Shown here piece by piece: positions 5,164-24,676 of a stretch of 64,000 nt of DNA. The stretch spans positions 17,539 to 81,538 of the forward strand of contig CALUSC010000006.1 of assembly GCA_944323345.1 (NCBI GenBank), read 5' to 3'. The stretch comes from an uncultured Bacteroidales bacterium. Lineage in GTDB: Bacteria > Bacteroidota > Bacteroidia > Bacteroidales > UBA932. The notes under the pieces are model-generated. The model was not told the origin of the DNA. It saw only the letters and a program-made list of their open reading frames with translations, and searched no databases. Position 1 is the first letter of the stretch, and each line of letters begins with the position of its first letter. A program made the translations under genes and the position numbers.

Positions 5164-5181
5164 ATCAGGTTCGTTTTAATG

Positions 5182-6397: not shown

Positions 6398-8836
6398 TCA
6401 GCGGATGTTGGCGATGCTGATGATGTCGGCGAATACGCCTGCGGCAGTCACGCTTGCTCCGGCACCGTATCCCTTGATCTGCATCGGATATTCCTTGTAT
6501 CTTTCTGTAGTTATGAGGATGACGTTGTTGCTTCCCGCCAGATGGTAGAAAGGGCTTTCCCTGTCCACTTCCTTGAGGCCGACTTCTGTCCTGCCGTTTT
6601 CCATCGTGGCCACGAATCTCCAGCATTTCCCTTCTGCGGCGAGAACCTTGCGGCGCTGTTCGAATTCCGCGTCCAGTTCCGGAATGGTGTTCCAGAATTC
6701 TTCGAGGGAGCCGTTGAAATATTTTTCAGGGATGAAAAGGTTTTTCCTGACGTCTTCCTGCTCCACATGATATCCCGCTTCGCGCGACAATATCACCAGT
6801 TTCCTTATGACGTCCGTGCCGCTGAGGTCGATTCTCGGATCCGGTTCCGCATATCCGGCTTCCTTCGCCATTCTTATGGCCTGGCTCAGAGGTACATCCT
6901 CGTTCATTTCGTTGAATATGAAATTCAGCGTTCCGGATACTACAGCTTCTATCTTCAGAATCTTGTCCCCGCTGTTTATGAGGCTGCTTATGGTATTGAT
7001 TATCGGGAGGCCAGCCCCGACGTTCGTTTCGAACAGATATTTGACTCCGCGTTTTCTGGCAGTCTCCTTGAGCTCATGGTATTTCCCGTATTCCGACGAG
7101 GCCGCGATCTTGTTGGCAGCCACTACCGATACGTTATGGTCGAGAAGGCTCTGGTATATGCCGGCCACCTCGGCACTGGCGGTACAGTCCACGAATACGG
7201 AATTGAACATATTCATTCCCAGTATCTCGTCCCTGAAGATTTCAGGCGAGGTGGAGATTTCGGAACTGTTCAGTCTTTCCGCATAGGTATCCAGGTCTAT
7301 GCCTTCCCGGTCTATGATGTACCTCCGCGAATTTGTGATTCCTATGACTTTTATCTGCAGGGACTTCTCTTTCATGAGCTTCTCCTGCTGCATCTTTATC
7401 TGGCTTATGAGGTTGCTGCCGACGAGTCCGTTTCCTGCCAGGAACAGATTCAGTACCTGATAGTCAGACAGGAAGAACGAGTCGTGTATCACGTTGAGGG
7501 CCTTTCTCAGGCTGTCGATGGAAATGACGAACGAAATATTCGTCTCTGATGCACCCTGGGCGCAGGCTATCACATTGATACCGTTCCTTCCGAGCGTACC
7601 GAACAGTTTGCCGGCGATTCCGGGTGTGTGCTTCATGTTTTCCCCCACGATGGCGACGGTGGCGAGATTCCTTTCCTGTTTGATACGGTTTATCTCACCC
7701 ATTCTTATTTCCTGGGCGAATTCTTCGGAAAGCACTTCTATGGCCAGATCCGCGTCCGAGTTACGGACACCGATGGATGTAGTGTTTTCCGATGCGGCCT
7801 GAGAGACCAGGAAGACACTTATTCCAGATTTGGCCAGCGTCTTGAAAATCCTGTAGTTCACTCCTATGACGCCGACCATTCCGAGCCCTTGGATAGTGAT
7901 CAGGCAAGTGTCGTTTATGGACGAAATTCCCTTGATGGCCCTGCTGTGGTCGCTCGCTTCGGGATTCCTGCTGATGAATGTTCCCGGAGAGGCAGGATTG
8001 AACGTATTCTTGATTTTTATCGGGATGTTCTTGTGGTATGCCGGAAAGATGGTAGGAGGATAGATGACCTTGGCTCCGAAGTTGCACAGCTCCATGGCTT
8101 CCACGAAAGTCAGGTGCTCGATCGTATAGGCGTTGCTGATGATTTTCGGATCCGCAGTCATGAATCCGTCGACGTCCGTCCAGATTTCCAGAGTGTCTGC
8201 ATTCAGTACGGAAGCCAGCACCGAAGCGGTGTAGTCAGAGCCTCCGCGACCGAGATTGGTCACGTCTCCGTTTACTGTATCCGAACTGATGAAGCCCGGT
8301 ACAATGGCTATGTGCGGCAGTTCGGCGAATTTCTGCACTACGAGCTTTTCCGTCTCTGCGAAATCCACTATATGTTTGTTGAAATACGGTCTCGTCTTTA
8401 TGAATTCCCTGGCATCATACAGGACCGAATTTCTGATCGTTCCGTTTACAATCACAGATGACAGCCTTTCACCGTAGCTGACTATGGCATCGGCAGTCTT
8501 TGCCGACAGGTCTTTGATCAGGAAAACGCCTTTGAAGATGTTCGACAGTTCGCCGAGCATGGTTTCTAGTCTGGCCCTGACCTCAGGCAGCTTTTCAGGG
8601 ATTACCGTATCTTCCGCCTGCCTGTAGTGCCGTTCGGTGATGGCTTTAAGCTGCTCTTCATAGGCCGGATCTCCTGCAGCAGCCGTCCTGGATGTCCTGA
8701 TCAGCTGGTCCGTAATGCCTCCGAGCGCCGATACGACTACGATAATGTCATCTGAGCATGATTCGATTACGTTTTTAGCCTGAAGAAGGCCTTCGGCTGA
8801 GCCGACAGATGTTCCTCCGAATTTTAAAACTCTCAT
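6398..8836 (-). CDS. thrA: Bifunctional aspartokinase/homoserine dehydrogenase
   Basis: KFGGTSVG, LGRGGSDY, WTDVDG, two ACT domains, GNGLVG, ETNVGAGLP, GYGAGASVTAAGV. Confidence 0.97.
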   Translation of the reverse strand: MRVLKFGGTSVGSAEGLLQAKNVIESCSDDIIVVVSALGGITDQLIRTSRTAAAGDPAYEEQLKAITERHYRQAEDTVIPEKLPEVRARLETMLGELSNIFKGVFLIKDLSAKTADAIVSYGERLSSVIVNGTIRNSVLYDAREFIKTRPYFNKHIVDFAETEKLVVQKFAELPHIAIVPGFISSDTVNGDVTNLGRGGSDYTASVLASVLNADTLEIWTDVDGFMTADPKIISNAYTIEHLTFVEAMELCNFGAKVIYPPTIFPAYHKNIPIKIKNTFNPASPGTFISRNPEASDHSRAIKGISSINDTCLITIQGLGMVGVIGVNYRIFKTLAKSGISVFLVSQAASENTTSIGVRNSDADLAIEVLSEEFAQEIRMGEINRIKQERNLATVAIVGENMKHTPGIAGKLFGTLGRNGINVIACAQGASETNISFVISIDSLRKALNVIHDSFFLSDYQVLNLFLAGNGLVGSNLISQIKMQQEKLMKEKSLQIKVIGITNSRRYIIDREGIDLDTYAERLNSSEISTSPEIFRDEILGMNMFNSVFVDCTASAEVAGIYQSLLDHNVSVVAANKIAASSEYGKYHELKETARKRGVKYLFETNVGAGLPIINTISSLINSGDKILKIEAVVSGTLNFIFNEMNEDVPLSQAIRMAKEAGYAEPDPRIDLSGTDVIRKLVILSREAGYHVEQEDVRKNLFIPEKYFNGSLEEFWNTIPELDAEFEQRRKVLAAEGKCWRFVATMENGRTEVGLKEVDRESPFYHLAGSNNVILITTERYKEYPMQIKGYGAGASVTAAGVFADIISIANIR

Positions 8837-9008: not shown

Positions 9009-11741
9009 TCAGTTGTTTTTCCGGCATTTAACCATATATTCCGTCGGAGTCATGTTATACAGAGCCTTGAAACACTTCGCGAAATATGCCGGTGACGAGA
9101 ACCCCGTTTCATAGGCTACTTCACTGACAGTCTTGTGCTCCGAGGCGAGCAGAGCCAGCGACTTTTTCAGTCTGTAGTTTCTCAGCATATCCGAAGGTGT
9201 CATGTCGAAAATATTCGAAATCTTGCGGTAAAGGGAAATCCTGGATATCCCCAGTTTCCCGCTCATGGCTTCGATTTTGAAGTCGCTGTCACGATATTCT
9301 TCTTCAAGTGCATTGAAAAATTTCTCTTTGAATTGTTCGTCCGGACAAGGAAGCTCGGTCACATCCTGTATCATCATGAGAGAAAATCTTTTCGAAAATG
9401 CCCCAGCCATTTTCCTGCGTTCTTCGAGAATCCGTATCAGTTTCAGCTTCAGTATGTTCATGTCGAAAGGCTTGCTGATATACTCGTCGGCCCCTTCTGC
9501 CAGGCCGTAAAGTTTGTGGCTGTTTTCCGAAAGTGCCGACAGCAGAACTACCGGTATATGGCAGGTGGACAGATCCGATTTTATATGTTCGCATAGCTGG
9601 AACCCGTTCAGTGCAGGCATGAGAACATCGCTGAGCAGGAGAGATATCTGTTCTTCCCTGGCTGCTTTCAGCGCATCGAACCCGTTTGACACCGGTATGA
9701 CGTTGAAATTCTCGGACAATTCTTTGCCGAGATACTCTAAAATGTCGGGGTCATCCTCGGCAACCACTATCGTATAGTCATATTTTCCGTGTATAAGGTC
9801 ATTTACTTTACTCTGGTCCGAAATATCGGAATCCAGCGTATCGGTCCGTCTCTCCTCATAAGTCACTTCCTGGCCGAAGTGGTCCTTGCCCTTGAGCAGT
9901 TCGACCCTGAATACGGTATATCTTCCCGGTTCGCTGTTTACGGTAATGCTTCCGTGATGCATTTCCACATATTCTTTCGTCAGATGGAGCCCTATGCCGG
10001 TACTGTAGAGTTTGTCGGATTTGCTTGCCAGAGAATAGAACCTGTCGAATATGCGCGGCAGTTCCTCTTTCGCTATTCCTTTGCCGTTATCCTCAACTTC
10101 TACGATGACGGAAGAAATATTGTCGGTGACGGTCACCGTAATCATTCCGTATTTATAAGAATATTTGAAAGCATTGGAAAGCAGGTTTAGGAATACTTGC
10201 TCGATCTTGCCTTTGTCTATCCATAGTTTCTGGACTGGAATGTCGCTGTGGAATTTGCATACGATTTTTTCCGTTTCGGCATAAGCCTCAAAATAGTTGA
10301 GGATTTCCTGCAGGAATCTGACTATGTTCACCTCACTTACGGAAAGGGTCATCTTGTTGTTCTCTATTTTCCGGATATCGAGAATCTGGTTCACTATCTT
10401 GAGAAGGTGCCTGGCATTTCTTTGGACTATCCATATATCATGTCTGATATTCTGGTCTTTCTCTTTTTTCAGTATATTGTCCAGGGGATTGAGTATAAGG
10501 GTCAGGGGAGTCCTTATTTCATGTGTGATGTTGGTGAAGAGCTGAAGCCGGCTGGTGGTGATGTTCTCTATCTGGGCATGTCTTTCCATGAGGTTATGGG
10601 TCGCGATTTCCACTTCCTTGTTCTTTGCCGACAGTATCTTGTTCCTGCGTCTGAGCAGGATATTGAGTCTCAAGGCATACAGTCCGGCGAAGCCTACCGT
10701 TGCCGCCATGGCCACGACTGCCCAAAGTGAATATTTCAGGGTGGACAGACTGTCTCCGTATTCTCTTATCTTCTTTTCCTGTTTGTTTATCTGTTCCTGA
10801 TAGCTTAGTATCTGTTCCTGCTGTGCTTTCAGCGTATAGGCATTTGTCGAGTCGACGAATGCGGTAGGCAGGCTGTAAAGCTTTTCGACTTTCTGTCCGG
10901 AAAGTATCTTCATCGCGATTTCCATTACTTTATCCCCGCCGGTAGGATAAAGAAATGATGCGCATAGTCTTCCGTCCAGTACGGCATCTACCCCGACCAG
11001 GGCGTCGATTCCGACGAATTTGATACGTCTGGCACTCGCCGGATCTGCGGCATCGATGGCATTGTATGCGGAAAGCGCCATATCGTCATTGTGGGCGAAA
11101 ATGAGGTCGATGGAACTGTAATCGTCCAGTTTTCCGACTGCCTCCAGAGCTTTCTCCGGTTTCCAGTCGCCGCTGACTGTATGGATGGAATAAATCTCGC
11201 TGGCTTCTTCCGTGAAACCCCGGTGTCTTTCTTCCGCCGGAGAGGAACTCATGAGTCCGGTAATTTCGAGTATGGTCGATTCCGGGGCGAGAATAGTTCT
11301 GATGTATTGGCCGACATCCCGGCCGATTTTATAGTTGTCCGCGCAGATGCATGTAGTGTAATGGTCGGACATTATTTTCCTGTCCCAGATAATGGTGGGA
11401 ATCCCGGAGTCGAAGGCACTGACGGCTATCGGCGTTATCGGTTCGGATTCATTGGGCGATATGACGAGAAGGTCTACGTCCATGTCGATGAATTCCTGTA
11501 TCTGGCTGATCTGGGTAGGGGTGTCGTTGCGGGCGTTTTTGACTATAAGTTCAAGACCCGGATATTTGGCGGCCTCGGCGCGCATCTGTACCATCATTAT
11601 CTGCCGCCACAGATCGTCCGTGCATTGGGAAAAGCCTACTGTAAAATGGTCTTTCACATCCGGTGCGGAATCGTATCTGCACCCGGATGTGAAAACCATG
11701 CAAAGCAATAACAGAATACCTGTTATCCTGTCTTTTACCAT
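9009..11741 (-). CDS. Hybrid two-component sensor/regulator with periplasmic sugar-binding domain (BT1754-like architecture: PBP-TM-HisKA-HATPase-REC-AraC)
   Basis: VGFSQCTDDLWR, FAHNDDMA and GIDAL sugar-PBP motifs; THEIRTPLTL; NLLSNAFKY; GIGLHL; LLSDVLMP; AraC end GFSSPAYFAKCFK. Confidence 0.92.
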   Translation of the reverse strand: MVKDRITGILLLLCMVFTSGCRYDSAPDVKDHFTVGFSQCTDDLWRQIMMVQMRAEAAKYPGLELIVKNARNDTPTQISQIQEFIDMDVDLLVISPNESEPITPIAVSAFDSGIPTIIWDRKIMSDHYTTCICADNYKIGRDVGQYIRTILAPESTILEITGLMSSSPAEERHRGFTEEASEIYSIHTVSGDWKPEKALEAVGKLDDYSSIDLIFAHNDDMALSAYNAIDAADPASARRIKFVGIDALVGVDAVLDGRLCASFLYPTGGDKVMEIAMKILSGQKVEKLYSLPTAFVDSTNAYTLKAQQEQILSYQEQINKQEKKIREYGDSLSTLKYSLWAVVAMAATVGFAGLYALRLNILLRRRNKILSAKNKEVEIATHNLMERHAQIENITTSRLQLFTNITHEIRTPLTLILNPLDNILKKEKDQNIRHDIWIVQRNARHLLKIVNQILDIRKIENNKMTLSVSEVNIVRFLQEILNYFEAYAETEKIVCKFHSDIPVQKLWIDKGKIEQVFLNLLSNAFKYSYKYGMITVTVTDNISSVIVEVEDNGKGIAKEELPRIFDRFYSLASKSDKLYSTGIGLHLTKEYVEMHHGSITVNSEPGRYTVFRVELLKGKDHFGQEVTYEERRTDTLDSDISDQSKVNDLIHGKYDYTIVVAEDDPDILEYLGKELSENFNVIPVSNGFDALKAAREEQISLLLSDVLMPALNGFQLCEHIKSDLSTCHIPVVLLSALSENSHKLYGLAEGADEYISKPFDMNILKLKLIRILEERRKMAGAFSKRFSLMMIQDVTELPCPDEQFKEKFFNALEEEYRDSDFKIEAMSGKLGISRISLYRKISNIFDMTPSDMLRNYRLKKSLALLASEHKTVSEVAYETGFSSPAYFAKCFKALYNMTPTEYMVKCRKNN

Positions 11742-11746
11742 GTCGG

Positions 11747-13273
11747 TCAGAAATTTGAGACCAGAAGAATGATTTCTCCAGGGACTGATGACGGCAGTAC
11801 TGTCGGGGAGAACAGGTGTCCGTCATCGCTGTCGAGAGCGAGCAGCTTTTCACCTGACCAGTCGCCTTCAGGTGCGCCGGCATCGCGGAAGACCAGGCCG
11901 CCGGTAGTATTTGATCTGTAAATCATGACATACCTTTGCTGGCTGGCGAGATAGGTCACGCACATTTCGGATGCGGTCCCGTATGTGATGGCAGCTGCGG
12001 CGTCAGGATCGGAAGCGACCCATTCCGCTCCGTCCCAGTAGGTCCATTCGGAGGCATTGTTGATTTCCCCGTCTACAGGTATTCGGGCTACATATATCTG
12101 AGGAGTATTCCTGCCGGCATTCGAACCGAACATGTACAGATATCTGCTGTCCTGGTAAAATGCCGCCTGGACGAAATGTCCGATACCGCTCCATCTGGCT
12201 CTTCCCTCTCTCGTCCATGTCTTTCCTCCGTCCGATGATGAAAGCAGCCCTGAGAAATTTGCAGTCCAGGCCTGGTCGTTTTCAGGATCTGTTTCCTTCA
12301 GGGAATAGTAATGGATATACTGGACACCGTTCACAGTGACTCCTGCGGTAGGGACGCAGGCTGTCTCGCCGTCTCCAGACGGCGCCAGGACAGCTGCAAT
12401 GCCGTCTTCGGCTGAAACGAACTGAGCGAGATGGAATCCGTCGGAGAAATCCATGTCATTGGAGACTGCGTATGCGTTCGGATATACGGTGCCGTCGGAC
12501 TCCACATCAGACAGCGCTATGGAAATGAGATTGTCCGGCCCCTGCCATACTACGGCCTTGGCTGCTGAAGATATACCGGTGAAAGATGCGTTCAGGAAAT
12601 TCCCCGTTTCCGTACAAGTATCCGATTTCAGGGAAGTCTGTGTGGTCCCTTTAGGAACAAGCCTGAAATCATCGAATCTCAGCCATACTCCGGGATATCC
12701 CCAGCATCCGCCGAAAACATTGCCCTGGGTGTAGTCTCCGGAATTGAATTCCTTTGTGAAGAGAGTCCAGCTGTCTGGATTCCATTCAGGCACCTGGGCG
12801 TCATTGATCGGCCCGCCTTCAAGCCTTACTCCTGCAAACGCATTCATGCCTGCCCATGCCGCTTTTCCGTAGCATGTCATGGTATAGTCTTTCCCTTTCT
12901 TGAGAGCTATCGACTGCAGGCATCCGTCGATCCAGACACCGTCATTCGGATTGTCGAGCTGCATTGATACTTCTCCGCCGTGTGCATCATCGGATGCAAT
13001 GGCCTGGACAGGGTCTTTCGCAGCACCTTCAAAATACCAGAGAGAGTTGTAGTCGATTTTCTCTTCAGGAAAAAGCTCGAAACCGGGTTCGGATATCATA
13101 TTGAATTCATCCTGGGAGAAAGTCAGGCGGTAAACATTGATCCCGCTGATTTGGACGGGGTCGGGATTCAGTTTGATTTCATCAGTTCCGTCACCGTTGT
13201 CCAGTGACTTGTTGCATGCGGCAGCCGATGCCGCCAATGCGAAAAGAATCGCAATTTTTACAATTTCTTTCAT
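11747..13273 (-). CDS. Lipoprotein with CBM-like domain followed by degenerate DUF4185 (GH183-like) beta-propeller; probable surface glycan-binding protein
   Basis: Lipobox AAAC. Shares CVPTAGV, SSDGGKTW, YMFGS, SEMCVTY and FRDAGAPEGDWSGEK blocks with the neighbouring DUF4185 gene. Lacks that gene's TD and FGD motifs. Confidence 0.7.
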   Translation of the reverse strand: MKEIVKIAILFALAASAAACNKSLDNGDGTDEIKLNPDPVQISGINVYRLTFSQDEFNMISEPGFELFPEEKIDYNSLWYFEGAAKDPVQAIASDDAHGGEVSMQLDNPNDGVWIDGCLQSIALKKGKDYTMTCYGKAAWAGMNAFAGVRLEGGPINDAQVPEWNPDSWTLFTKEFNSGDYTQGNVFGGCWGYPGVWLRFDDFRLVPKGTTQTSLKSDTCTETGNFLNASFTGISSAAKAVVWQGPDNLISIALSDVESDGTVYPNAYAVSNDMDFSDGFHLAQFVSAEDGIAAVLAPSGDGETACVPTAGVTVNGVQYIHYYSLKETDPENDQAWTANFSGLLSSSDGGKTWTREGRARWSGIGHFVQAAFYQDSRYLYMFGSNAGRNTPQIYVARIPVDGEINNASEWTYWDGAEWVASDPDAAAAITYGTASEMCVTYLASQQRYVMIYRSNTTGGLVFRDAGAPEGDWSGEKLLALDSDDGHLFSPTVLPSSVPGEIILLVSNF

Positions 13274-13297
13274 AATAAAGGCAATTAGTATTATGTA

Positions 13298-14911
13298 TTA
13301 ATTATTGACAGGTTTAAGGCAGATGTCATCGATCAGCATCTTCATTTCCGGACCTCCCCAGACGCCGAAGAATACATCGGCCCGGGAATTGTCTCCGGAA
13401 TTGAAGGTCCTGGATATTTTCGACCATTCATCTCTCGGCAGAGCTTCGGTCACGTCATGAATCGTCCCGTCTGGGAGACGGACTCCGACATAAGCCCCTT
13501 CCGGGATATCCTTTTCCGGACGTATCCAGCATTCTACTGTGTAGTCCGTGTTTTTACGAAGCGTTACAGTCTGTGTGCAGGCATCTTTCCATACACCGTC
13601 TCCGGTATTCGAAAAGCTGCATGAGACTTTTCCGGAATGAGCTGTCCTTGAAGTCATCGCCGAAGCGTCGACTTTCCACATCGTTTTGTATTGGATGGCA
13701 TTGGACGTGTATTCTTCAAAACCTCCTTCAGAAACTATATTGACGCCGTTGTCATCCCATTCCAGATCGGCGTGCATGAGAAATATATTCCAGGTAGGCA
13801 CGGCATGGGACAGGACGAACCACAAGTCTTTTCCATCAGTAAACCACGGGTGGATGTAAGGGCCGTAAAGTGCGTTCCCGTCTTCGTACATTATTATTTT
13901 CTCTCCGGACCAGTCTCCTTCAGGCGACGGGGAGTCGCGATAAACGATGGCTCTCTGGTTCACTGACAAATACATCATGATGTACCTGTCATAAAGACTG
14001 TTATATGAAACAGTCATTTCGGAGACGGTGCCCTGCGCGACCGGAACAGCCTCTGTTTCATCCGGGCTCCAGTCTCCACCGGCCCAATATGAATAGGATG
14101 TTTTGTCCAGCATCTTGTCGCCGGGTACTTTTGCCAGATAGACATTCCCGTATCGGCCCGAACGGGTGCCGTACATATATACCGTATCATCCTTTTTATG
14201 GAAGGCTGCCTGTGCGAAATTGCTTTCAGCATCCCATTTGACTCCGGAGCGGGTCCATGTGAGGCCTCCGTCATCGCTATAGACCAGTTCGCTGTAGTTT
14301 ACCGACCAGTAATCATTGTCTCCGGTAGGAGTCCAGTCATGTATGCTCATGTAGCTGAGATATTGGCGGCCTCCGAAAGATACTCCGGCAGTAGGTATGC
14401 ATGTCACTTCATACATGGAACCGTCCGGGTATTGTCCGGTCTTGGCTCTTGAGACTATGATTTCCTTGACCTGGCCGCCATCCATGATCATGTCGGAATA
14501 ATACAGTCCGTCAGAGAGGTCCGTATCCGTGCTTACGGCTATTGCGTTGGATTTCCAGTTGCCGCCATAATGGTCGAAGTTGTCGCCGAATACGCAGAGC
14601 AGCCGTCCGTCTCCGGCATCCCACATGTTTCCATAATCGGTTCTGCCGATTCCGAATCTTGTATCGGTCCGGTTAGGATTCGGTATCGTTTCTCCGCTTT
14701 CCGATCTTCCTGTCACTCTCGCCACGAGAGTGACGTTTTCAGGAACCAGAGATCCTGTCGCCTCTTTTTCAGGTTCGGGATCAGGTTCTTCGGGTACAGG
14801 TTCCGTAACCGGAGGCTGTCCTGTGTCAGTCTCCGTCCCAGGCTGGATAGCCGTAGTGCAGGACAACGGCACCAGCGCAAAGGCAGTAAGCAGTGTTAAT
14901 ATTTTAAGCAT
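13298..14911 (-). CDS. DUF4185/GH183 family glycoside hydrolase lipoprotein with C-terminal CBM4/9-like domain
   Basis: Lipobox LSC; TDYGNMWD, VFGDNF, WKSN, IPTAGVS, SDDGGLTW, SEMTVSYN, YGPYIHPW. Start placed at 14911, 1 nt after the susD stop. Confidence 0.82.
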   Translation of the reverse strand: MLKILTLLTAFALVPLSCTTAIQPGTETDTGQPPVTEPVPEEPDPEPEKEATGSLVPENVTLVARVTGRSESGETIPNPNRTDTRFGIGRTDYGNMWDAGDGRLLCVFGDNFDHYGGNWKSNAIAVSTDTDLSDGLYYSDMIMDGGQVKEIIVSRAKTGQYPDGSMYEVTCIPTAGVSFGGRQYLSYMSIHDWTPTGDNDYWSVNYSELVYSDDGGLTWTRSGVKWDAESNFAQAAFHKKDDTVYMYGTRSGRYGNVYLAKVPGDKMLDKTSYSYWAGGDWSPDETEAVPVAQGTVSEMTVSYNSLYDRYIMMYLSVNQRAIVYRDSPSPEGDWSGEKIIMYEDGNALYGPYIHPWFTDGKDLWFVLSHAVPTWNIFLMHADLEWDDNGVNIVSEGGFEEYTSNAIQYKTMWKVDASAMTSRTAHSGKVSCSFSNTGDGVWKDACTQTVTLRKNTDYTVECWIRPEKDIPEGAYVGVRLPDGTIHDVTEALPRDEWSKISRTFNSGDNSRADVFFGVWGGPEMKMLIDDICLKPVNN

Positions 14912-14912
14912 A

Positions 14913-16514
14913 TCAATACGAATAACCGTCATTCTGACGAAGGTTTATATTGGACAACAGTTCCGCGGACGGAATCGGGAACAGTTCGAGATATCCTGAC
15001 TTTTTCGGAGAGTGGAATGTCCAGGTGCCGTTGACATACAGATCCCAGCGAATTAGCTGTTCCCGTCTCATGCCTTCGCCTGTAAATTCACGTCCGAGTT
15101 CTTTCAGAAATTCACCATACTTTACCTGTACTCCGTCCACTTCGGTCACGGCTTCCAGCCGGGCAGCCGGGATTTCCCTTACTTCCTGAGGCAGGGACTT
15201 GTCGAAACTGCGGTCCCTGATCTCGTTGACGATTTTTGCCGCCCCTGCGGCATCACCGTCACGCAGCAGGCATTCGGCCTTCATCATGAGGGTTTCCGCA
15301 AGTCTGAATACTACCCAGTCCTGGTCGGTCTCCCATTTCTGGCCGATTTTTATTTCGTATTTGCCGAACCGGTAGCCGTCGAATTCTTCCGCCGCGTTGA
15401 TGGACGCTATTTCATTGACATAATTGAAAGGTGTGACGCCGTCCGTGAAATACAGAGGCTCTTTCGTAATGTAGTCATATTGCTGTCCCATGCAATATGT
15501 CTCCCTGTAGCGGTTGTCGTTATAGTCATCCGGACTTTTCGCGTCGAATGTTTCATTCACGTATGAAGGGACGGCTCTCAGTCCGTTGTAACCGCCGGAG
15601 CCAGCATTGTATATCGGCTGGCAGGACCAGTGCTGGGTCTTGGCGTATATGCAGTGGAATATCGGGGAACCGGTAGTCTCGTCATACGGGACGGCAAATA
15701 TGATTTCCGGTGAACTTTCATTGTCGAGACTGAATATGTGGGAGAAGCTGTCATCCAGCTGGTATTTCCCCGAATTGATTATTTCATCGCACAGGATCAG
15801 TGTGCTGTCTCTCTTTTCGGCATATTTTTCTCCGAGCCATGCTTCCGCATTCAGATACACTTTCGCAAGCAACTGCTTCGCGGACCATTTGTTGAACCTG
15901 CTGTATCTGGCTTCTTCCGGAAGCAGGTCCATACTTTCCCTCAGTTCCTTCACGACGAAGTCGTAGACATCTTCACGGCTGCGTGTGGAAGGCAGATAGT
16001 CTTCAGGCAGGTCATACGTATCTATTATCGGCACATTGCCGAACAATGACAGCAGATAGTAATAATAAAACGCCCTCACTGTCCTTATTTCCGCAAGTGT
16101 CCCGGCATCTATCTCCACCCCGTTCTCTTCGAGCTGGAAAATAGCCCTGTTGCAGCATGTGGTTATGCCATACCACAAGTGACTCCAGCAATTGCTGAAA
16201 TGCGGGTCAGTCGGGAGCCATTCGTGGTTATCCAGACGAAGCCAGATACCGCCGTCGTACCATCCTCCGTCGGTATTTGTCGGTATGACCCATGCGTCAG
16301 TCCCTAATTCGGTCAGGTCCCAAATGCTTCTGTCTTCATTGAACCATCGCATCTGGCCGTACATGGGAGTAAGGATATACGCGGAATTTTCTTCCGGATT
16401 CTCCATGATGGTGTTCAGGGTCATGTCGCTGTATATGACAGGATCCAGATCGGTACATGAATATGCCAGAGCGGAAATCGCCAGTATTGTTGTCAGTTTT
16501 GCCGTATGTTTCAT
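14913..16514 (-). CDS. susD: SusD/RagB family glycan-binding lipoprotein
   Basis: Lipobox AYSC; RAFYYYYLLSLFGNVPI, LLAKVYLN, FRLAETLMMKAEC, ELGREFTGEGMRREQLIRW, LRQNDGY. Confidence 0.93.
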   Translation of the reverse strand: MKHTAKLTTILAISALAYSCTDLDPVIYSDMTLNTIMENPEENSAYILTPMYGQMRWFNEDRSIWDLTELGTDAWVIPTNTDGGWYDGGIWLRLDNHEWLPTDPHFSNCWSHLWYGITTCCNRAIFQLEENGVEIDAGTLAEIRTVRAFYYYYLLSLFGNVPIIDTYDLPEDYLPSTRSREDVYDFVVKELRESMDLLPEEARYSRFNKWSAKQLLAKVYLNAEAWLGEKYAEKRDSTLILCDEIINSGKYQLDDSFSHIFSLDNESSPEIIFAVPYDETTGSPIFHCIYAKTQHWSCQPIYNAGSGGYNGLRAVPSYVNETFDAKSPDDYNDNRYRETYCMGQQYDYITKEPLYFTDGVTPFNYVNEIASINAAEEFDGYRFGKYEIKIGQKWETDQDWVVFRLAETLMMKAECLLRDGDAAGAAKIVNEIRDRSFDKSLPQEVREIPAARLEAVTEVDGVQVKYGEFLKELGREFTGEGMRREQLIRWDLYVNGTWTFHSPKKSGYLELFPIPSAELLSNINLRQNDGYSY

Positions 16515-16524
16515 GGTATGTTCC

Positions 16525-19455
16525 TTAGAATTTGAATGATAGCCCCATAACATAAGTTCTCAGATTCGGGTACTTTTCTACCGGATCCACTCCGGGCGTC
16601 AGCCCTGTAACCGATACTTCCGGATCGATTCCGGAGTATCCTGTCATAGTGAGAAGATTCATCCCGGAGAAAAAGATTCTTATATTCCTTATGACATTGT
16701 TGACTTTCGTCAGGTCGAACGTGTATCCCAGAGTCACATTGTCAAGTTTTACATAATCTCCTTTCTCTATGTAATAGTCGGAATATATTGCCGAAGCGAA
16801 GTTGTAATAGTCTCCTATTTTCCTGTATGCCGCTTTAGGGACGTTGTAGCTCGAAAGCCATGCGAGAGTCTCGTATTTCATGCGGTAAGCGTTGAGTATG
16901 TCGAATCCGAAAGCTCCGCGGAACGATACGGTCGCATCCAGCCCCTTCCATTGCAGGTTGAACTGCAATGCCGAGAACATTTTCGGAATCCCATTCCCGA
17001 TGACTGTCTTGTGGTCTTCGCTCGGATCGGCATTTTCCGCCCCTATGACGTTCCATGCAGTGCTGTTTTTCAGACCGTTGACCTTCCATCCATAGAAATT
17101 TCCGACAGCCCATCCCGCTTCGAGCCTGTGGGTATAAGTCTGCATCGGGGCACCGGTCGAACCGAGAGTCAGATAATCCATGGTATACCGGCTGTTCGAC
17201 AGCGAAACCAGTTCATTCGTATTGTATGAGAAATTCCCGCTTATGGAAAACGTCAGGTCTTTTTTTGCTATCGCAATTCCCGACAAGGCCACTTCTACTC
17301 CTGAATTGCGGATAGAACCCACATTGGCAAGTATCGTATTTGTAATATTCGGGGGAGTCGGGACATTGTAGGTGTACAGAAGATCATCCGTAAACCTTTC
17401 ATAATAATCGACGCTGCCCGAAAGCCTGCCGTCGAAGAACCCGAAATCGAGACCAATGTTCAGCTCCTGCTTCCTTTCCCATTTAAGGTCATCGTTAGGA
17501 TTGTTGGCAGGTATTATCGCATTTATCCATTCCCCGTTGTCATATCCCATATATGAAGAATTGAAGTTATACAGCGATATATACTGGTATGCCGCAGACG
17601 GGGCCGTTCCGGTCACGCCGTATCCCGTCCTCAGTTTAAGGTCCGAAAGCCATTTCACATCCTGCATGAATTTTTCCTGCTTGATCCTCCATCCTGCACT
17701 GACGGCCGGAAACATACCCCATCTGTTGTTCCGTCCGAACTTGTCGCTTCCTTCTCTCCTGAGGCTGACCATGAGCAGATAGCGGTTGTCATAATTGTAA
17801 TTTATCCTGCCGTAGAAACCTATCAGCTTTACCTGATATTTGTAGCTTGTAAGTTTGGACGTTCCGTCCAATGTAGAATTGGCGGACCCGATATTCCACG
17901 CTCCGAAACCATCGATCGGAAAATCGTAGCCGTACATCTCGGAGTTCTGGTGTTCGTATTTGTTGTAACTGTATCCTATGGTGGCGGAGAGAGAATGTCT
18001 GCCCAGCTGTTTCGAGTAATCGGCCTGCAGTTCGAGTGTCTTGTCGACTCCGTGGCCGTTGGTCAGTCTGGCCTGGCCTTTTGTGCTGCCCATAACGGCT
18101 GAATAGTGCTTGTGCGTAGTGCTGTATTCCCTTGAATTGAAATCACCCAGATAATTTACCGTGGCGCTGAGGATAAGGTTTTTCACAGGCTCTACCTCTA
18201 TTTTCCCTGACATCATGAGCTGGTTGTATTTGTTGATATCGCTCGCTTCCTTGAGAACTCCGACAGGGTTGGCGCCGTTGCTGTTTTCATACCACGATCC
18301 GTCCTCGTTATATACAGGTATCGTAGGATTTCTGCTCAGAGCCTGCATGTAGAGGTCATTCGGGACAAAACCCTGGGTGTCGAACTTGTCGCTCATGTTC
18401 AATATTATTCTCAGCCTGTCATTGAACATGGAATGGTTCAGGTTTATCTTGGCTGAAACATATTCGTCGAACGAGCCGGGAAAAACGCCGTTCCTGTCAT
18501 TATATGTCAGGGATGCTATATAGTTTGTCCTGGACGAACCGCCTTGGATCGACAGGTAGTGAGTCTGGCTCACAGGCGTTCTCGTCACTTCCTTTACCCA
18601 GTCGGTATCCGCTCCGAAGTCGTTTATAAGTTCGAAGCGTTCGTCTGTTGAAGACAATTCGGCCCTGAATCTTCTCAATTCGGCCGCATCGGGGTAGTTG
18701 CCGGTTTCGTCTATCATTTTGTCGATGGTGACATAACCTTTATAATCTATCGAGACTCTTCCGGATTCGGGTTTTTTCGTATTGATGATTATGACGCCGT
18801 TCGTCCCTCTTGTCCCGTAAATGGCTGCGGCAGATCCGTCCTTCAGCACATTTATGGATTCTATGTCTTCCGGCGAAACGGAATTCAGGGAGCATCCTGC
18901 CACTCCGTCTATGACGATCAGCGGATCCGAAGATGCGGCCAGAGTGGAAATCCCTCTTAATGAAATGCTTATGTCTCCAGTAGGGTTTCCGGAGGTCCTG
19001 GATATGCCCAGACCGGCCACTTTACCCTGAAGAAGCTGAAGAGGGTTCGAGACACTGCCCTGTATGAAATCCTCGGACCCCACTCTTGCTATGGAACTGG
19101 TTATTTCTTCTTTTTTCACGCTGCCGTACCCTATCGCCACCACTTCTTCGAGATACTCTGTTTCGATTTCAAGAACAAAATCTATTATACCGGTCCCGGA
19201 GCATCTTTTTTCAGCGGTCTGCATCCCTATCATCGAGCATATCAGGACAGAATTGTCGGGCACCGACAGTTGATAAGTCCCGTTTTCATCGGTGGAAGTG
19301 CCGATGGCGGTATCTTTTATGAACACGGCGGCTCCGGCCAGCGGCATACCGTCGGTATCCGAAACTTTTCCGCTGATCTGCACGGTGTTCTGGGCTGCCG
19401 CGTCTGCTATAAATGCAAGTGACAGTATCGTCACCAGAATAATGGTCTTTTTCAT
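16525..19455 (-). CDS. susC: SusC/RagA TonB-dependent transporter
   Basis: ISGKVSD...GTSTDENG, EVVAIGYG, VLKDGSAAAIYGTRGTNGVIII, LKWERK, C-terminal aromatic SFKF. Confidence 0.96.
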   Translation of the reverse strand: MKKTIILVTILSLAFIADAAAQNTVQISGKVSDTDGMPLAGAAVFIKDTAIGTSTDENGTYQLSVPDNSVLICSMIGMQTAEKRCSGTGIIDFVLEIETEYLEEVVAIGYGSVKKEEITSSIARVGSEDFIQGSVSNPLQLLQGKVAGLGISRTSGNPTGDISISLRGISTLAASSDPLIVIDGVAGCSLNSVSPEDIESINVLKDGSAAAIYGTRGTNGVIIINTKKPESGRVSIDYKGYVTIDKMIDETGNYPDAAELRRFRAELSSTDERFELINDFGADTDWVKEVTRTPVSQTHYLSIQGGSSRTNYIASLTYNDRNGVFPGSFDEYVSAKINLNHSMFNDRLRIILNMSDKFDTQGFVPNDLYMQALSRNPTIPVYNEDGSWYENSNGANPVGVLKEASDINKYNQLMMSGKIEVEPVKNLILSATVNYLGDFNSREYSTTHKHYSAVMGSTKGQARLTNGHGVDKTLELQADYSKQLGRHSLSATIGYSYNKYEHQNSEMYGYDFPIDGFGAWNIGSANSTLDGTSKLTSYKYQVKLIGFYGRINYNYDNRYLLMVSLRREGSDKFGRNNRWGMFPAVSAGWRIKQEKFMQDVKWLSDLKLRTGYGVTGTAPSAAYQYISLYNFNSSYMGYDNGEWINAIIPANNPNDDLKWERKQELNIGLDFGFFDGRLSGSVDYYERFTDDLLYTYNVPTPPNITNTILANVGSIRNSGVEVALSGIAIAKKDLTFSISGNFSYNTNELVSLSNSRYTMDYLTLGSTGAPMQTYTHRLEAGWAVGNFYGWKVNGLKNSTAWNVIGAENADPSEDHKTVIGNGIPKMFSALQFNLQWKGLDATVSFRGAFGFDILNAYRMKYETLAWLSSYNVPKAAYRKIGDYYNFASAIYSDYYIEKGDYVKLDNVTLGYTFDLTKVNNVIRNIRIFFSGMNLLTMTGYSGIDPEVSVTGLTPGVDPVEKYPNLRTYVMGLSFKF

Positions 19456-19477
19456 GTTATAAGAGTTTTAGTTCCGG

Positions 19478-21055
19478 CTATTCAGCCAGTGTGTCGAGAT
19501 CTCCGTACCAGTATGATGCAGCCCTGTAGTCCACGGTGCCGGGAACCCAGCTGAGCATTTCAAGATCGAACACCAGGGATTCACGGAATGGCATTATGTC
19601 CAGATTCCTGGTTCTCATGAATGTGTTGTATCCGTGAGATGAGTCTTCGTCAGCTCTCGGAGCCCCTCCGAACGGAGTGTCGAACGGGACGACAGGCGCC
19701 CAGGAACAGTTGAAATAATCTTCCGTGCCGGTTCCCATTATGGAAGGGAAAATGTCGTCATCTATCCATATTTTCTCATCTCCTTCCCCGTACCATGACG
19801 GACAATGGTTATACAGAGAAAGGATGTCTCCGCAATATATGCCCCTGCCTTTCACGGAGGCGAAGTTCCATTCGATGTTATCGTTCGAATTGTAGTCGCT
19901 GCCGGTAGGAACGGCTGCCTGTTCCCTGTAAGACGCATGGAAATACAGAGTGTTGTCAGTCATCTCATAATCATCGACATAGCATGTCAATACCGCTTTG
20001 TAACAGTGTGCCGACGCATTTACGATGCAGATTTCAGCATTGTCCCTGTACGGCATGACCCATCTGGATGAGAATCTGCCTTTCCCGTCAGATGTCAGAT
20101 ACCATCCGTCGACGGCAGGTGTGCCTGTCCCGGCTCCGAAGAAACAGTCCAGAGGGCAGTCCACGCATTCCACACCGTCGAACTTCATCTTTATGTAGCT
20201 GTTCCGCATTATTTCATGGAGAGCGGAACTGTCCTCCAAATCCTTTATGTTCAGTGAGAGATAGCGGACAGCATTATTGCCGGCAGGCAAATCGAGACAA
20301 GAGTCTGACGTTTTCGTCGGAGAAAAAGTCTTTATGCACTCTGTGCCTGAAGTGAAATTTTCCGCATTGAGCAGCCTTTTGCAGATACGTTCTATTTCCG
20401 GAGCAAGATTTCTTGCCTGCTTCAGAGAAAACGTCTTTACGTCCGTTCCGTCCGGATATTTCCTGTAAGTGATCTGATAATACCTCGGTATGTCATTTTT
20501 GCCGGAAGTTTCCTCAAGTGTTATTTTACATGATTCGGAATAAGGCATCGGCAGAAAAAATGTATTTCCTCCCACTCCTGTGAGATTTGCGTCATAATGG
20601 GTGTGGGTCAAAGAGAGCGGGATTCCGGGGTTTACGGGGAATCTGTCCATGTCATAGGCGTCGACGGTGATGTCGGGTTCATCCGATCCGTCGAAATAGA
20701 ACCGCAGCGTACCGGTTTTGTCTCTGGTAGTCATCCATATTCTGGTAATGGCTCCGGGACCTTTCTCATCGAACAGGACTTTTTCCGTCCGGCCCTGGAC
20801 AGAATCGATCCGTTCGAATCCGAATCCGTCGTCATTTGCAAACCAGCCCGGCTCGTCAGGCTTTGTGGTCCTGCGGTCATAGCTGCTGACCTGCGCCGTC
20901 CTGTATTCAGGTTCAGGCCATGAAACCACGGCGTCATACGACACCATTTCATTCAGCAGGCTTTCCGTTGTCACGCATTTCCCGTCATTCCCGGCCTGAA
21001 CGCATGAGACGGCGGATGCCGACAAGAATAAAAGGCAAATCAGATTTTTCATCAT
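19478..21055 (-). CDS. DUF2961/GH172 family exo-alpha-D-arabinofuranosidase / alpha-D-fructofuranosidase lipoprotein
   Basis: Lipobox AVSC; SSYDR, GPGAITRIWMT, WYGEGDEKIWIDD, GTGTEDYFN, typical of DUF2961. Confidence 0.88.
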   Translation of the reverse strand: MMKNLICLLFLSASAVSCVQAGNDGKCVTTESLLNEMVSYDAVVSWPEPEYRTAQVSSYDRRTTKPDEPGWFANDDGFGFERIDSVQGRTEKVLFDEKGPGAITRIWMTTRDKTGTLRFYFDGSDEPDITVDAYDMDRFPVNPGIPLSLTHTHYDANLTGVGGNTFFLPMPYSESCKITLEETSGKNDIPRYYQITYRKYPDGTDVKTFSLKQARNLAPEIERICKRLLNAENFTSGTECIKTFSPTKTSDSCLDLPAGNNAVRYLSLNIKDLEDSSALHEIMRNSYIKMKFDGVECVDCPLDCFFGAGTGTPAVDGWYLTSDGKGRFSSRWVMPYRDNAEICIVNASAHCYKAVLTCYVDDYEMTDNTLYFHASYREQAAVPTGSDYNSNDNIEWNFASVKGRGIYCGDILSLYNHCPSWYGEGDEKIWIDDDIFPSIMGTGTEDYFNCSWAPVVPFDTPFGGAPRADEDSSHGYNTFMRTRNLDIMPFRESLVFDLEMLSWVPGTVDYRAASYWYGDLDTLAE

Positions 21056-21085
21056 GTCATTTATTATATTATGTGGTTTGACTTA

Positions 21086-21946
21086 TTATAATGCGATCCA
21101 TGCACCGGCATGCCTGCATACTTCCGCAGCAGTCTTTACGGCGGCTTCATGTGCTTCCCGGACAGACTTGCCGTTGAGGACCGAACCGATGAAACTTCCT
21201 GTAAACGAGTCACCGGCTCCGACAGTATCCGCGACCTCGACTTCTGGCGTCCTGATTCTGGACAGGCCGTCTCCGGAATATACGGAACTGTATTGTGCCC
21301 CGGCAGTGAGAATCAGTAGCCTGAGATCCCATCTGGACATGATATGTCTGCAGACCTCGTCGGAATCTCCTTACAGACGAAAGAGCCTTTTTATTAAATC
21401 GAATTCTTCATCATTGATTTTCAGCACATTGGATATTTGCAGGTTTTTTTCTATCAGTTCGGTGGAATAGAATTGCTGCCGTATGTTGATATCGAAAATC
21501 CTGTACGCGTCTGCCGGCGTGGCCGCGACTATCGACGCAATGGTATCTCTTGACACCCGGGAGCGTTGCGCAAGCGTGCCGTAACATATTGCCGAAGCTT
21601 CGGCTGCGAGTGAAATCATCTCGTCCGTAAGCCGGATATGGTCCCATGCCACATTTTCATTGATGTGATACTGGGGTATCCCGTCTTTCAGCCGGACATC
21701 TACTGTCCCTGTAGGGTATTCCGTCACGGCAGCCCTTATTCTGATGCCGAATTCTTCCGTTGTCTTCAGCAGTTCCTTACCGAGAGGGTCATCTCCTACC
21801 GCACTGAAAGCGACGGCGCGGACTCCTGATTTGGAAGCGTAATATGTAAAATTCACGGGGGCCCCGCCTGCCTTTTTCCCGTCGGGAAGTATATCCCACA
21901 GGAATTCACCTATTCCCAGAACCAGCGGTTTTTTCATATCATTCAT
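21086..21946 (-). pseudogene. PfkB-family (fructokinase-like) sugar kinase interrupted by an in-frame TAA
   Basis: GIGEFLWD..GGAPVNF, FDINIR and LKINDEE run into ...RLFRL-TAA-GDSDEVCRHIMSRW... in the same frame, then DTVGAGDSF. Stop at 21371-21373. Confidence 0.88.
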
Positions 21947-23193
21947 TTTCCCAGTTTGTTTTGAAGATAATTTTCTATTTCATCGAGAGATTTTCCTTTA
22001 GTTTCAGGAATATAGATCCAGATAAATATCATGGCGGCCAGACACAGGATACAGAATGCTCCGAAAACAGCGGCCGGACCGTATGCGGAAACCGTGACGG
22101 GGAAAAGCTGTACTACGAGAAACGCGCATATCCAGCTGACTCCCGTGGAAACAGCCATCGCCGTTCCCCTTATGGATGAAGGGTAGATTTCGGACGTCAC
22201 TACAAACATGAGCGGGGAGAGAGACATTGCGAAAAATGCAATATACATGAGAATCGCTGCCAGAATGGCAATATTGTCCGCCTCCGGCTGCATGAATTCG
22301 TAAACAAGAAAAGCCAGGGAGACCACAAGTCCGGCACATCCGGCGATCAGTATTTTCTTTCGGCCGAGTCTGTCTACAAGCCAGACGGCCAATATTGTAA
22401 AGACGAAATTCACAATGCCGACATAAACGGATTGCAGCAGGGCTGCATCTCCTCCGATTCCGGCTTCTTTCAATATGCCGGGAGCATAATTGATGACGAC
22501 ATTGATACCTGTTATCTGCTGGAATGCCGCCAGCAATATGCCCAGAATGAGGATTTTCCCGTTCACTCCGCCCGTCAATGTTTTCCAGGATACGGAATCG
22601 TTTTCCCGTTTGCCGGCCCTTGCCGACCAGACAGGGCTTTCAGGAATGAATGCAAGGAACACCAGGGAAAGTACCGATGCCGCTGCCGGGACTCCGAGCA
22701 TCCACCGCCAGTTGTCGGCCCAGGTCATCATCATGAAATCCAGAAGATAGGCTATGAGGATGCCGGTGACGATAAACATCTGGTACAAAGATACCAGAGT
22801 CCCTCTCCATTTCGCCGGAGATATTTCAGAGACGTAGACAGGAATGACCGTAGAGAGGACACCCATGCCCGTCCCGATGAAAAACCGTGAGATCACAAGA
22901 AGAAGTACGCCTGAAGAGAATGCGCTCAGCAGAGAAAACAGCATTATGATGAATACGGAGCATGACAGTATTCTGACTCTGCCATATCTGTCACTCAACG
23001 TGCCTCCGGACAGTGCCCCGAACAGGCATCCTATCATTATGATGCTGGTGACGAACCCTGCCTGGAGAGGAGTCAGGGAGAAATCGGAAATCAGATAATC
23101 CAGGGCTCCTGATATCCCTCCCAGATTCAGACCGGCTACAAACGCGGCGAAAGATGCAGCTACGGCGCTGTAAACCATTTTTCTGTTATCCAT
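21943..23193 (-). CDS. Sugar porter family MFS transporter
   Basis: SDRYGR, YVSEISPAKWRG, PESP, QQITGIN, VDRLGRK, SEIYPSSIRG, PETKGKSLDEI. Confidence 0.93.
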   Translation of the reverse strand: MDNRKMVYSAVAASFAAFVAGLNLGGISGALDYLISDFSLTPLQAGFVTSIIMIGCLFGALSGGTLSDRYGRVRILSCSVFIIMLFSLLSAFSSGVLLLVISRFFIGTGMGVLSTVIPVYVSEISPAKWRGTLVSLYQMFIVTGILIAYLLDFMMMTWADNWRWMLGVPAAASVLSLVFLAFIPESPVWSARAGKRENDSVSWKTLTGGVNGKILILGILLAAFQQITGINVVINYAPGILKEAGIGGDAALLQSVYVGIVNFVFTILAVWLVDRLGRKKILIAGCAGLVVSLAFLVYEFMQPEADNIAILAAILMYIAFFAMSLSPLMFVVTSEIYPSSIRGTAMAVSTGVSWICAFLVVQLFPVTVSAYGPAAVFGAFCILCLAAMIFIWIYIPETKGKSLDEIENYLQNKLGK

Positions 23194-23320: not shown

Positions 23321-23683
23321 TCAGTCATGTTTCCCGATTATTTTTTCCATCCAGATCATGCTGTACCAGCGTCCGAATTTATATCCGCATTTCCTCGCAT
23401 CCTTGTCGATGTAGATGCTCAGCTCGCACGATCTGCCGTATGCTTCACGCCCGACAAACGGACCGGCGTAGGTGTATCCCATGATCCTGCCGTCCTTTTC
23501 GATGACCAGATAAGGGTATTTTTCCAATGTGTGTTCTATCCTTTTCCGGAACACCTCGGCGGAAGGAGTCAGATATTCGAAAGAGACAGCTGTTTTCTCT
23601 ACATAATAGGAATATATTTCCAGCAGCCTGGGGGCATCTTCCGGTACTGCACTTCTGATCCGTATGTCTGTGTTTTCTTTCAT
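23321..23683 (-). pseudogene. GNAT N-acetyltransferase (Pat/YncA-like) with in-frame internal deletion
   Basis: N-terminal LLEIYSYYVEKTAVSFE...YPYLV...GYTYA...ELSIYI joins directly to the C-terminal GYKFGRWYSMIWMEK; only 120 aa. Confidence 0.7.
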
Positions 23684-24557: not shown

Positions 24558-24584
24558 GTTTTCTTCATTTTCTTCAAAGTGACG

Positions 24585-24611
24585 CAAATATAGAATATTT
24601 TTGTACTTTTG
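24585..24611. promoter_or_regulatory. Back-to-back Bacteroidetes -7 elements for rsmA (TATATTTG, minus) and aspS (TACTTTTG, plus)
   Basis: CAAATATA at 24585-24592 and TACTTTTG at 24604-24611 match TAnnTTTG. Confidence 0.6.
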
Positions 24612-24676
24612 CAAGTTATTGGCATTGGCCGGCAGGGCGCCGGCATGTGCCTGATTGTTTAAAAGACAGTATCGTT

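Follow-up and report, generated by a model that had tools for sequence, protein, structure and literature searches.

A candidate D-arabinan utilization locus with a fructan-type sensor and sugar kinase in an uncultured Bacteroidales bacterium

Overview of the locus

A polysaccharide utilization locus (PUL) was identified in a stretch of 64,000 nucleotides from an uncultured Bacteroidales bacterium (contig CALUSC010000006.1, positions 17,539 to 81,538; the whole stretch is called the window below), in which enzymes of families GH183 and GH172 were combined with a sensor and a sugar kinase of the fructan PUL type. The phylogenetic trees supported the recruitment of the sensor and the kinase together from fructan-PUL homologues. 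As for the function, the favoured explanation is that D-arabinan is degraded, and that D-arabinose is sensed, imported and phosphorylated to arabinose-5-phosphate by a retuned module; an even chance is given to it. The sequence evidence lay on both sides, and an alpha-fructoside is a live rival to D-arabinan. The first D-arabinan-degrading enzymes date from as late as 2023; here GH183 and GH172 were paired with a different sensing and catabolic arm.

The locus occupied positions 9009-23193 of the minus strand with eight close-packed genes in one orientation, as read from the list of open reading frames (ORFs) and from Pfam. The original prediction, made from the letters of the DNA, had given a co-oriented series of sugar porter, PfkB kinase, DUF2961, susC, susD, DUF4185, DUF4185-like gene and hybrid two-component system (HTCS), and this order was borne out. 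The genes were as follows.

21943-23193, minus strand: sugar-porter transporter of the major facilitator superfamily (MFS), 416 aa; Pfam Sugar_tr, 3e-95
21086-21946, minus strand: PfkB sugar kinase with an in-frame TAA; Pfam PfkB
19478-21055, minus strand: GH172 (DUF2961) lipoprotein, 525 aa; Pfam DUF2961, 4e-62, in two stretches
16525-19455, minus strand: SusC-like TonB-dependent transporter, 976 aa; Pfam CarbopepD_reg_2, Plug and TonB_dep_Rec
14913-16553 (likely start 16514), minus strand: SusD-like lipoprotein; Pfam SusD_RagB and SusD-like_3
13298-14932 (likely start 14911), minus strand: GH183a (DUF4185) with a C-terminal CBM4_9-like domain (CBM, carbohydrate-binding module); Pfam DUF4185, 1.6e-85
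11747-13273, minus strand: GH183b, a DUF4185 propeller with an N-terminal CBM-like domain; Pfam DUF4185, 2.7e-49, profile positions 50-299 only
9009-11741, minus strand: HTCS with a BT1754-type periplasmic sensor; Pfam Peripla_BP_4, HisKA, HATPase_c, Response_reg and HTH_AraC

In the synteny search, the eight-gene order was kept in seven other Bacteroidales species genomes with 34-77% amino-acid identity, and the locus was also met in about 50 metagenome contigs, mostly with a human-gut label, whose GH183a was 66-74% identical. A chance arrangement was ruled out by this conservation across many loci. The carriers included a mouse Muribaculaceae metagenome-assembled genome (MAG), Hadza gut MAGs, a water-deer rectum MAG and UBA7258, from which it follows that the pairing of GH183 with GH172 is not a curiosity of Dysgonomonas. 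When 401 genomes of the order were sampled evenly, only four had full-length GH183 matches and 34 had BT1754-like sensors. The combination had been put forward as one not known from a described system, and a full-text literature search on GH183, DUF4185, GH172 and D-arabinan gave no description of it.

Enzymes and surface binding protein

The assignment to families GH183 (1.6e-85) and GH172 (4e-62) was confirmed by the profile search. GH183a was predicted to be a surface endo-alpha-D-arabinanase-type lipoprotein, and the five-bladed DUF4185 propeller with the nucleophile, the acid/base and E243 was complete in 13298-14932. It matched EndoMA1 (PDB 8hhv) over residues 85-541 with an E value of 1e-69, the motifs T-D-Y-G, F-G-D and S-E-M could be aligned to 8hhv, and EndoMA1 residues D33, D51, E243, W138, R198, L292 and Y293 were all matched, the first five being invariant across eight GH183a orthologues. 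In EndoMA1, D33 is the nucleophile, D51 is the acid/base and E243 is essential, and the cleft residues hold alpha-1,5-D-arabinotetraose in the crystal structure (PMC10509167). Every characterised GH183 enzyme is an endo-D-arabinanase (PMC10115798, PMC10509167), so the residue match was counted for D-arabinan as the substrate. The arabinan site on the CBM of EndoMA1 was mostly changed in GH183a, with F379 kept and N361, D365, R381, N383, W468 and Q470 altered in an alignment read by hand; this site was doubted by the EndoMA1 authors themselves (PMC10509167).

GH183b, the gene that had been called DUF4185-like, did possess the DUF4185 fold, while the catalytic nucleophile Asp of GH183 was missing from it. 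Residues 114-206 matched the CBM of EndoMA1 and residues 262-506 its propeller, the CBM standing at the N-terminus in GH183b and at the C-terminus in GH183a. The nucleophile position was occupied by Ala in the window copy and by Gly in the seven other orthologous ones; D or N stood at the acid/base position, and R198 was retained only in the window and in the two L001 copies. Because the nucleophile was missing in all eight orthologues, GH183b was read as a pseudo-enzyme, predicted to be a surface glycan-binding protein with the GH183 fold and without enzyme activity. Such a conserved dead paralogue would illustrate clearly how an enzyme fold can be taken up by a PUL for glycan binding.

The GH172 protein appears to be an exo-alpha-D-furanosidase with an extra N-terminal beta-sandwich, giving three jelly-roll-like domains. 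Its PDB matches were ExoMA1 (8ic8), BACUNI_00161 (4kq7), Dg79 (8ah3) and alphaFFase1 (7v1v). Both catalytic motifs were conserved, GEG with the acid/base and GTGTED with the nucleophile; they correspond to E270 and E291 of alphaFFase1, whose W267, D292 and W298 in the -1 subsite were matched as well. In the AlphaFold2 (AF2) model (pTM 0.82) three beta-sandwich regions were present, about 310-346 alignment columns superposed on the solved GH172 structures, and 4kq7, 8ah3, 8ic8 and 7v1v were each matched with a Foldseek probability of 1.00, while residues 83-206 repeated the first jelly-roll segment. Both the GH172 fold and the catalytic Glu pair were thus found. Since GH172 and GH183 jointly define the characterised D-arabinan loci, their co-occurrence was also counted for D-arabinan.

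Sensor, kinase and transporter

Residues 30-331 of the HTCS matched BT1754 (PDB 2x7x) with an E value of 1.5e-63. The sugar-binding domain, one membrane-spanning segment at about 338-360, HisKA, HATPase, receiver and AraC helix-turn-helix (HTH) were all carried on a single chain, as in BT1754-type regulators. No other BT1754-type sensor, GH172 or GH183 was found in the 88%-complete source genome.

In a maximum-likelihood tree, seven GH183-linked sensors formed one clade (100/99) with a stem of 0.48, nested among GH32-linked sensors, and nine GH183-linked kinases likewise formed one clade (95/91) nested among GH32-linked kinases. The sister groups of the two clades shared the loci L069, L073 and L074. 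A single event in which the sensor and the kinase were both recruited from fructan-PUL homologues is therefore supported on phylogenetic grounds, since each formed one clade inside GH32-linked sequences with sister groups from shared loci, and the proposal that a fructan module had been repurposed gained support in this way. In 16 of the 19 other BT1754-like loci fetched from the order, GH32 was located beside the sensor. GH32 was absent from the window locus, as had been noticed from the sequence, and none was found in the 88%-complete source genome, so that a classical fructan PUL was rejected. GH32 was likewise absent from loci L001-L007, with one exception elsewhere, the metagenome contig L136.

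In the UBA7258 genome a second BT1754-like HTCS was observed in L089 (G405:C23:88000-107043), where its neighbours were SusC/D, a PfkB kinase and an enzyme of the GH13 alpha-amylase family, with no GH32. The regulator of one subclade was only 487 aa long (L002:13123-14586, L003:13096-14559, L006:12987-14450, and also L131-L134, L146, L148 and L157). It consisted of the sugar-binding domain, a membrane segment at about 333-357 and the AraC HTH, with the histidine kinase and receiver deleted, which implies a ToxR-like one-component derivative of the HTCS, presumably signalling without a phosphorelay.

Membership of the PfkB kinase in the fructan-PUL family, as originally predicted, was upheld through the intact orthologue L001:2959-3813, which matched PDB 2qhp, 'fructokinase', with an E value of 3e-82; we take 2qhp to be BT1757. 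The frame in the window was broken by a TAA at 21371-21373, which splits the gene into an N part of 191 codons and a C part of 94 codons in the same frame. The GAGD catalytic motif lay in the C part, past the stop, and an intact kinase was not encoded in the window. In the seven relatives with a kinase gene it was intact, with 285-292 aa; the contig of L004 ended before the gene. The residue at the stop position was F, L or P in the orthologues, and E or D in the kinases of sister fructan loci. The end branch of the window kinase in the tree was 0.88, against a median of 0.3. The long branch gives indirect support to real decay rather than an assembly slip, and the kinase gene is probably decaying or inactivated in the source genome, with the rest of the locus intact. 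An exact-pattern scan of metagenome contigs around the TAA gave no match.

The MFS transporter was assigned as a sugar porter by NCBIfam (3e-92), with the nearest equivalogs, GlcP and XylE, below the cut-off, and it is predicted to be the inner-membrane importer of the released monosaccharide. In the original prediction the HTCS, PfkB kinase and MFS had been compared as a set with those of the fructan PUL; the sensor (BT1754) and the kinase did correspond, while the MFS was a sugar porter and not of the fructan-PUL type. A sugar porter (PF00083) was present in every GH183-linked locus whose transporter gene was read. Among the GH32-linked loci, the MFS_1 type was seen in five, L073 and L074 of the sister clade being two of these, and a sugar porter in two others. 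The MFS_1 transporter of the sister fructan loci is presumably BT1758-like. By these family assignments the transporter was exchanged and not recruited with the sensor and kinase. The SusC proteins of related loci were 57-73% identical to that of the window, which showed only 25-38% identity to fructan-PUL SusCs.

Proposed route of D-arabinan utilization

The target would be an alpha-D-arabinofuranose polymer, such as actinobacterial arabinogalactan, lipoarabinomannan or another D-arabinofuranose (D-Araf) glycan. The substrate, the ligand of the sensor, the substrate of the kinase and the arabinose-5-phosphate route are all inferred from sequence, and the steps are given conditionally. The polymer would be cut internally at the surface by the lipoprotein GH183a, and held there by the dead GH183b with its CBM and propeller. 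The oligosaccharides could then be imported through SusC/SusD and trimmed to the monosaccharide in the periplasm by the three-domain GH172. Binding of the monosaccharide to the periplasmic domain of the HTCS would switch on the operon, in which the HTCS itself apparently lies, and the sugar porter would bring the monosaccharide into the cell. There PfkB could phosphorylate the furanose at O5, equivalent to O6 of fructofuranose (Fruf), yielding D-arabinose-5-phosphate, which would be converted into ribulose-5-phosphate by an arabinose-5-phosphate isomerase of the KdsD/GutQ type.

The sensing and catabolic arm was taken from a fructan PUL and would have been retuned to D-arabinose. D-Araf is Fruf without the C1 hydroxymethyl group, and for this reason the exaptation of a fructose module to D-arabinose is conceivable. 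A more specific claim, held with somewhat less than even confidence, is that the GH183-linked sensors would be the first D-arabinose-sensing HTCS, and that the PfkB would be a D-arabinofuranose 5-kinase, feeding the pentose phosphate pathway via arabinose-5-phosphate and the KdsD/GutQ-type isomerase. No description of such a kinase-first route of D-arabinose was found in the literature.

Evidence on the nature of the sugar

Besides the enzymes, further observations were counted for D-arabinose. In G401 (Muribaculaceae) the locus occurred together with a classical fructan PUL that was complete and had a separate HTCS, MFS_1, PfkB and two GH32, and two full sets of sensor, transporter and kinase in one genome argue for two different sugars. 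The exchange of the transporter relative to L073/L074 was taken in the same sense. Also, the GH183-linked sensor clade showed fixed changes beside predicted contact motifs (I48, Q52, W119 and V248); W119 precedes the D-R pair, I48 and Q52 lie on the helix after D-D-x-W, and V248 follows D245.

The isomerase was considered separately. A FucI-type D-arabinose isomerase was not found in four of the six locus-bearing genomes (the source genome and G401-G403), so that the kinase would have to act first if the sugar is D-arabinose. The idea of arabinose-5-phosphate was set down before an arabinose-5-phosphate isomerase of the KpsF/GutQ family was found at one locus (L005:101-1069, G404:C6:275223-276191; 322 aa, E 6e-105). 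This gene and an ORF of 122 aa are the first in the co-directional cluster, immediately ahead of the MFS gene, and further upstream the genes are divergent.

A number of findings weigh against the D-arabinose explanation. The isomerase of L005/G404 was the only copy detected in that genome, and its adjacency was seen in one of about 60 loci. In the 88%-complete source genome, neither an arabinose-5-phosphate isomerase nor KDO8P synthase was detected above the cut-off, nor was a GH116 beta-D-arabinofuranosidase. That the isomerase and KDO8P synthase went undetected is unexpected for a Bacteroidales genome and may simply reflect missing contigs. The arabinose-5-phosphate isomerase was also undetected in G402, G403 and G405, where incompleteness or divergent isomerases are possible. 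The predicted sugar-contact motifs of the sensor (D-D-x-W, D-R, E-R-H, W, H-N-D, G-x-D and Y-P) were the same as in GH32-linked sensors; they are what we take to be contacts by analogy with ribose-binding protein, which is a weak mapping. The sole clade-specific change of the GH183-linked kinases was GGAPVNF in place of GGAP(I/A)NF. Elsewhere, the BT1754-like sensor and PfkB accompany the fructose-releasing GH32, or in one genome GH13 that may release fructose. On the 5.8-kb metagenome contig L136 (JAEIGA010060336.1), SusD, GH183b, GH183a and GH32 were co-oriented, with GH32 at 4593-5774 (Pfam 8e-87). Finally, Ala occupied the position eight residues after the GH172 nucleophile, both in the window and in those six orthologues in which GTGTED was found by the motif search, as against Cys or Asn in the three arabinofuranosidase-type structures (Cys304 of BACUNI_00161, C285 of Dg79, Asn in ExoMA1) and Gly in alphaFFase1, a pattern which is ambiguous.

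Many of these findings would suit an alpha-D-fructofuranosyl glycan, such as caramel- or DFA-type oligomers (DFA, difructose dianhydride) or an undescribed alpha-fructan. GH183a and GH172 would then act on fructofuranosides, the sensor would bind fructose and the kinase would be a fructokinase, for which no isomerase is required. The unchanged motifs of the sensor and kinase, the usual partnership of this pair with GH32 or, in one genome, GH13, the GH32 adjoining the GH183 pair in L136 and the small Ala of the window GH172 all point this way, and the GH172 family includes a true alpha-D-fructofuranosidase, alphaFFase1 (PMC8605356). This explanation is nevertheless rather unlikely, as all arabinan-binding residues of EndoMA1 were retained in GH183a, no GH183 has been shown active on fructosides, and the GH172 enzymes of D. 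gadei do not cleave DFA I. It would also leave G401 with two redundant fructose sensor/transporter/kinase sets, and it does not suit the exchange of the transporter type. Moreover, we know of no natural alpha-fructofuranan polymer, yet the locus possesses an endo-enzyme, a binding protein and SusCD.

Alternatively, D-arabinan could be degraded by a locus whose module was not retuned, the sensor answering to fructose or to both sugars, the kinase staying a fructokinase and D-arabinose being used otherwise or poorly. The ligand motifs of the sensor and kinase were indeed unchanged, L136 resembles a fructan/GH183 hybrid, the kinase was dispensable enough to bear a nonsense codon in the source genome, and the likeness of D-Araf and Fruf makes cross-recognition plausible. 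In all full-length loci across several lineages, however, the kinase, porter and sensor were kept in close linkage with the enzymes, which would be odd if they were irrelevant to the product, and G401 has a separate fructan PUL with its own module, so this explanation was considered distinctly unlikely.

It is a quite improbable alternative, and a refinement of the D-arabinan explanation rather than a contradiction of it, that the substrate is another D-arabino-configured furanoside glycan (D-Araf-bearing pilin or lipopolysaccharide glycans, or an unknown gut microbial polysaccharide) and not the classical mycobacterial arabinan. Mycobacterial wall should be scarce in the sources where the locus was common, namely human-gut contigs and MAGs from mouse, Hadza and deer. 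Neither a GH116 for beta-caps nor, within the locus, any galactofuranosidase family was found, the arabinan site of the EndoMA1 CBM was not conserved as read by hand, and the three-jelly-roll Dg71 has no known preferred substrate. The subsite residues of GH183a did fit the alpha-1,5-arabinan cleft of EndoMA1, which speaks for the classical polymer.

Should the arm handle D-arabinose, as favoured here, a sensor family that is structurally tractable would gain a new ligand specificity, D-arabinose or arabinan might be detected with a biosensor made from it, and a rare pentose would have an undescribed route in which the kinase acts before the isomerase. Should it handle fructose, GH183 would have an unknown second activity.

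Comparison with known systems

The closest likeness was seen with PUL42 of Dysgonomonas gadei, a D-arabinan utilisation locus (Al-Jourani et al. 2023, PMC10115798; Ross et al. 2026 preprint 10.64898/2026.08.13.744632). Both are Bacteroidota PULs with GH183 endo-D-arabinanase(s), GH172 exo-alpha-D-arabinofuranosidase(s) and SusC/SusD, the enzymes of the window being predicted ones, and Dg71 of PUL42 is a three-jelly-roll GH172, as the window GH172 appears to be. PUL42 has three GH172, two active GH183 and GH116, whereas the window has one GH172, one active-type and one dead GH183, and no GH116 was found. In PUL42 a fucose/D-arabinose isomerase is the most abundant protein on arabinan, together with an FGGY ribulokinase; in the window there were a PfkB kinase, a sugar porter and a BT1754-type HTCS instead. 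Neither FucI nor GH116 of the PUL42 type was found in the 88%-complete source genome, and the FGGY ribulokinase was not searched for.

The fructan PUL of Bacteroides thetaiotaomicron contains the BT1754 HTCS, the BT1757 fructokinase, the BT1758 transporter and GH32 enzymes, according to Sonnenburg et al. 2010 as reported in PMC3404733. The sensor and kinase of the window are homologous to it, and the same logic would apply, a monosaccharide being sensed in the periplasm. It differs in that the window has no GH32, has a sugar porter rather than the MFS_1 of the sister loci, and has SusC/D unrelated beyond the family level. In addition, BT1754 has its own constitutive promoter, whereas the window HTCS is probably co-transcribed with the structural genes.

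The D-arabinan cluster of Microbacterium arabinogalactanolyticum consists of EndoMA1/2 (GH183), ExoMA1 (GH172) and ExoMA2 (GH116) (Shimokawa et al. 2023, PMC10509167). GH183a of the window shares with EndoMA1 the architecture of a propeller with a C-terminal beta-sandwich and the catalytic and subsite residues, and the catalytic glutamates were kept in GH172. The Microbacterium system belongs to a Gram-positive bacterium; it has an ABC importer, GH116, exo-enzymes located in the cytoplasm and a putative isomerase and kinase, and it lacks SusCD, an HTCS and a dead GH183 paralogue.

GH172 was also tied to fructose metabolism in Bifidobacterium dentium, where alphaFFase1 occurs with a GH32 cluster (Kashima et al. 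2021, PMC8605356). E270, E291, W267, D292 and W298 of this enzyme were matched in the window GH172, the identity across the superposed model being only about 22%. AlphaFFase1 forms a hexamer in the cytoplasm and acts on two disaccharides, DFA I and inulobiose; its gene neighbours include GH32 and an ABC importer, and it is accompanied by neither an endo-enzyme nor SusCD. A cluster of LacI, GH183 and GH172 was present in G062, a further genome of the order. The pairing with a BT1754-type sensor and PfkB kinase appears to set the window locus apart from PUL42, the Microbacterium cluster and that of G062, PUL42 being compared by its published protein names.

Variants and mobility of the locus

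Contig L136 may represent a fructan/GH183 hybrid locus or an intermediate stage in evolution. In many relatives an extra ORF of 161-169 aa was present between GH183b and the HTCS (L097:12644-13141, at the same spot in most human-gut contigs; L150:11589-12074), which is not found in the window; it is related to the CBM of GH183a, with CBM_4_9 in L150. An alternative arrangement of GH183b, HTCS and GH183a was observed in L150:12771-15849 and L140:2724-5802, where two conserved proteins of 743 and 291 aa with no Pfam matches come after GH183a and the small CBM protein. In a human-gut variant, a MobA/VirD2-like relaxase fragment (L097:498-1043) was located directly upstream of the MFS.

The flanking genes varied between species, and the window sensor clustered with that of the Muribaculaceae MAG L001 and not with that of the genus-mate G269/L006. 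The locus may be horizontally mobile.

Gene organization and source genome

The intergenic spacing ranged from -29 to +30 nt, and an ATGA overlap joined the MFS and PfkB genes. The HTCS started only 5 nt past the end of GH183b and is probably co-transcribed with the structural genes for this reason. Lipoprotein signal sequences were found on GH172, SusD, GH183a and GH183b, the lipobox being AVSC in GH172 and AYSC, after an internal Met, in SusD. The true starts of GH183a and SusD are likely at 14911 and 16514, because the lipoprotein signal sequences fit there. Scans for sigma-70 promoters and terminators scored no better than in shuffled sequence.

The source genome (G000) is 2.12 Mb, with 49.8% G+C and 88% completeness, and its relatives are Muribaculaceae-like Bacteroidales. 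The locus was flanked by the housekeeping genes thrA (6398-8836) and aspS (24311-26446). Between the MFS and aspS, an ORF of 120 aa for a GNAT acetyltransferase was observed on the minus strand at 23321-23683. It matched positions 1-88 of a profile of 155 positions and then continued with the typical C-terminal motif, so it probably carries an internal deletion.

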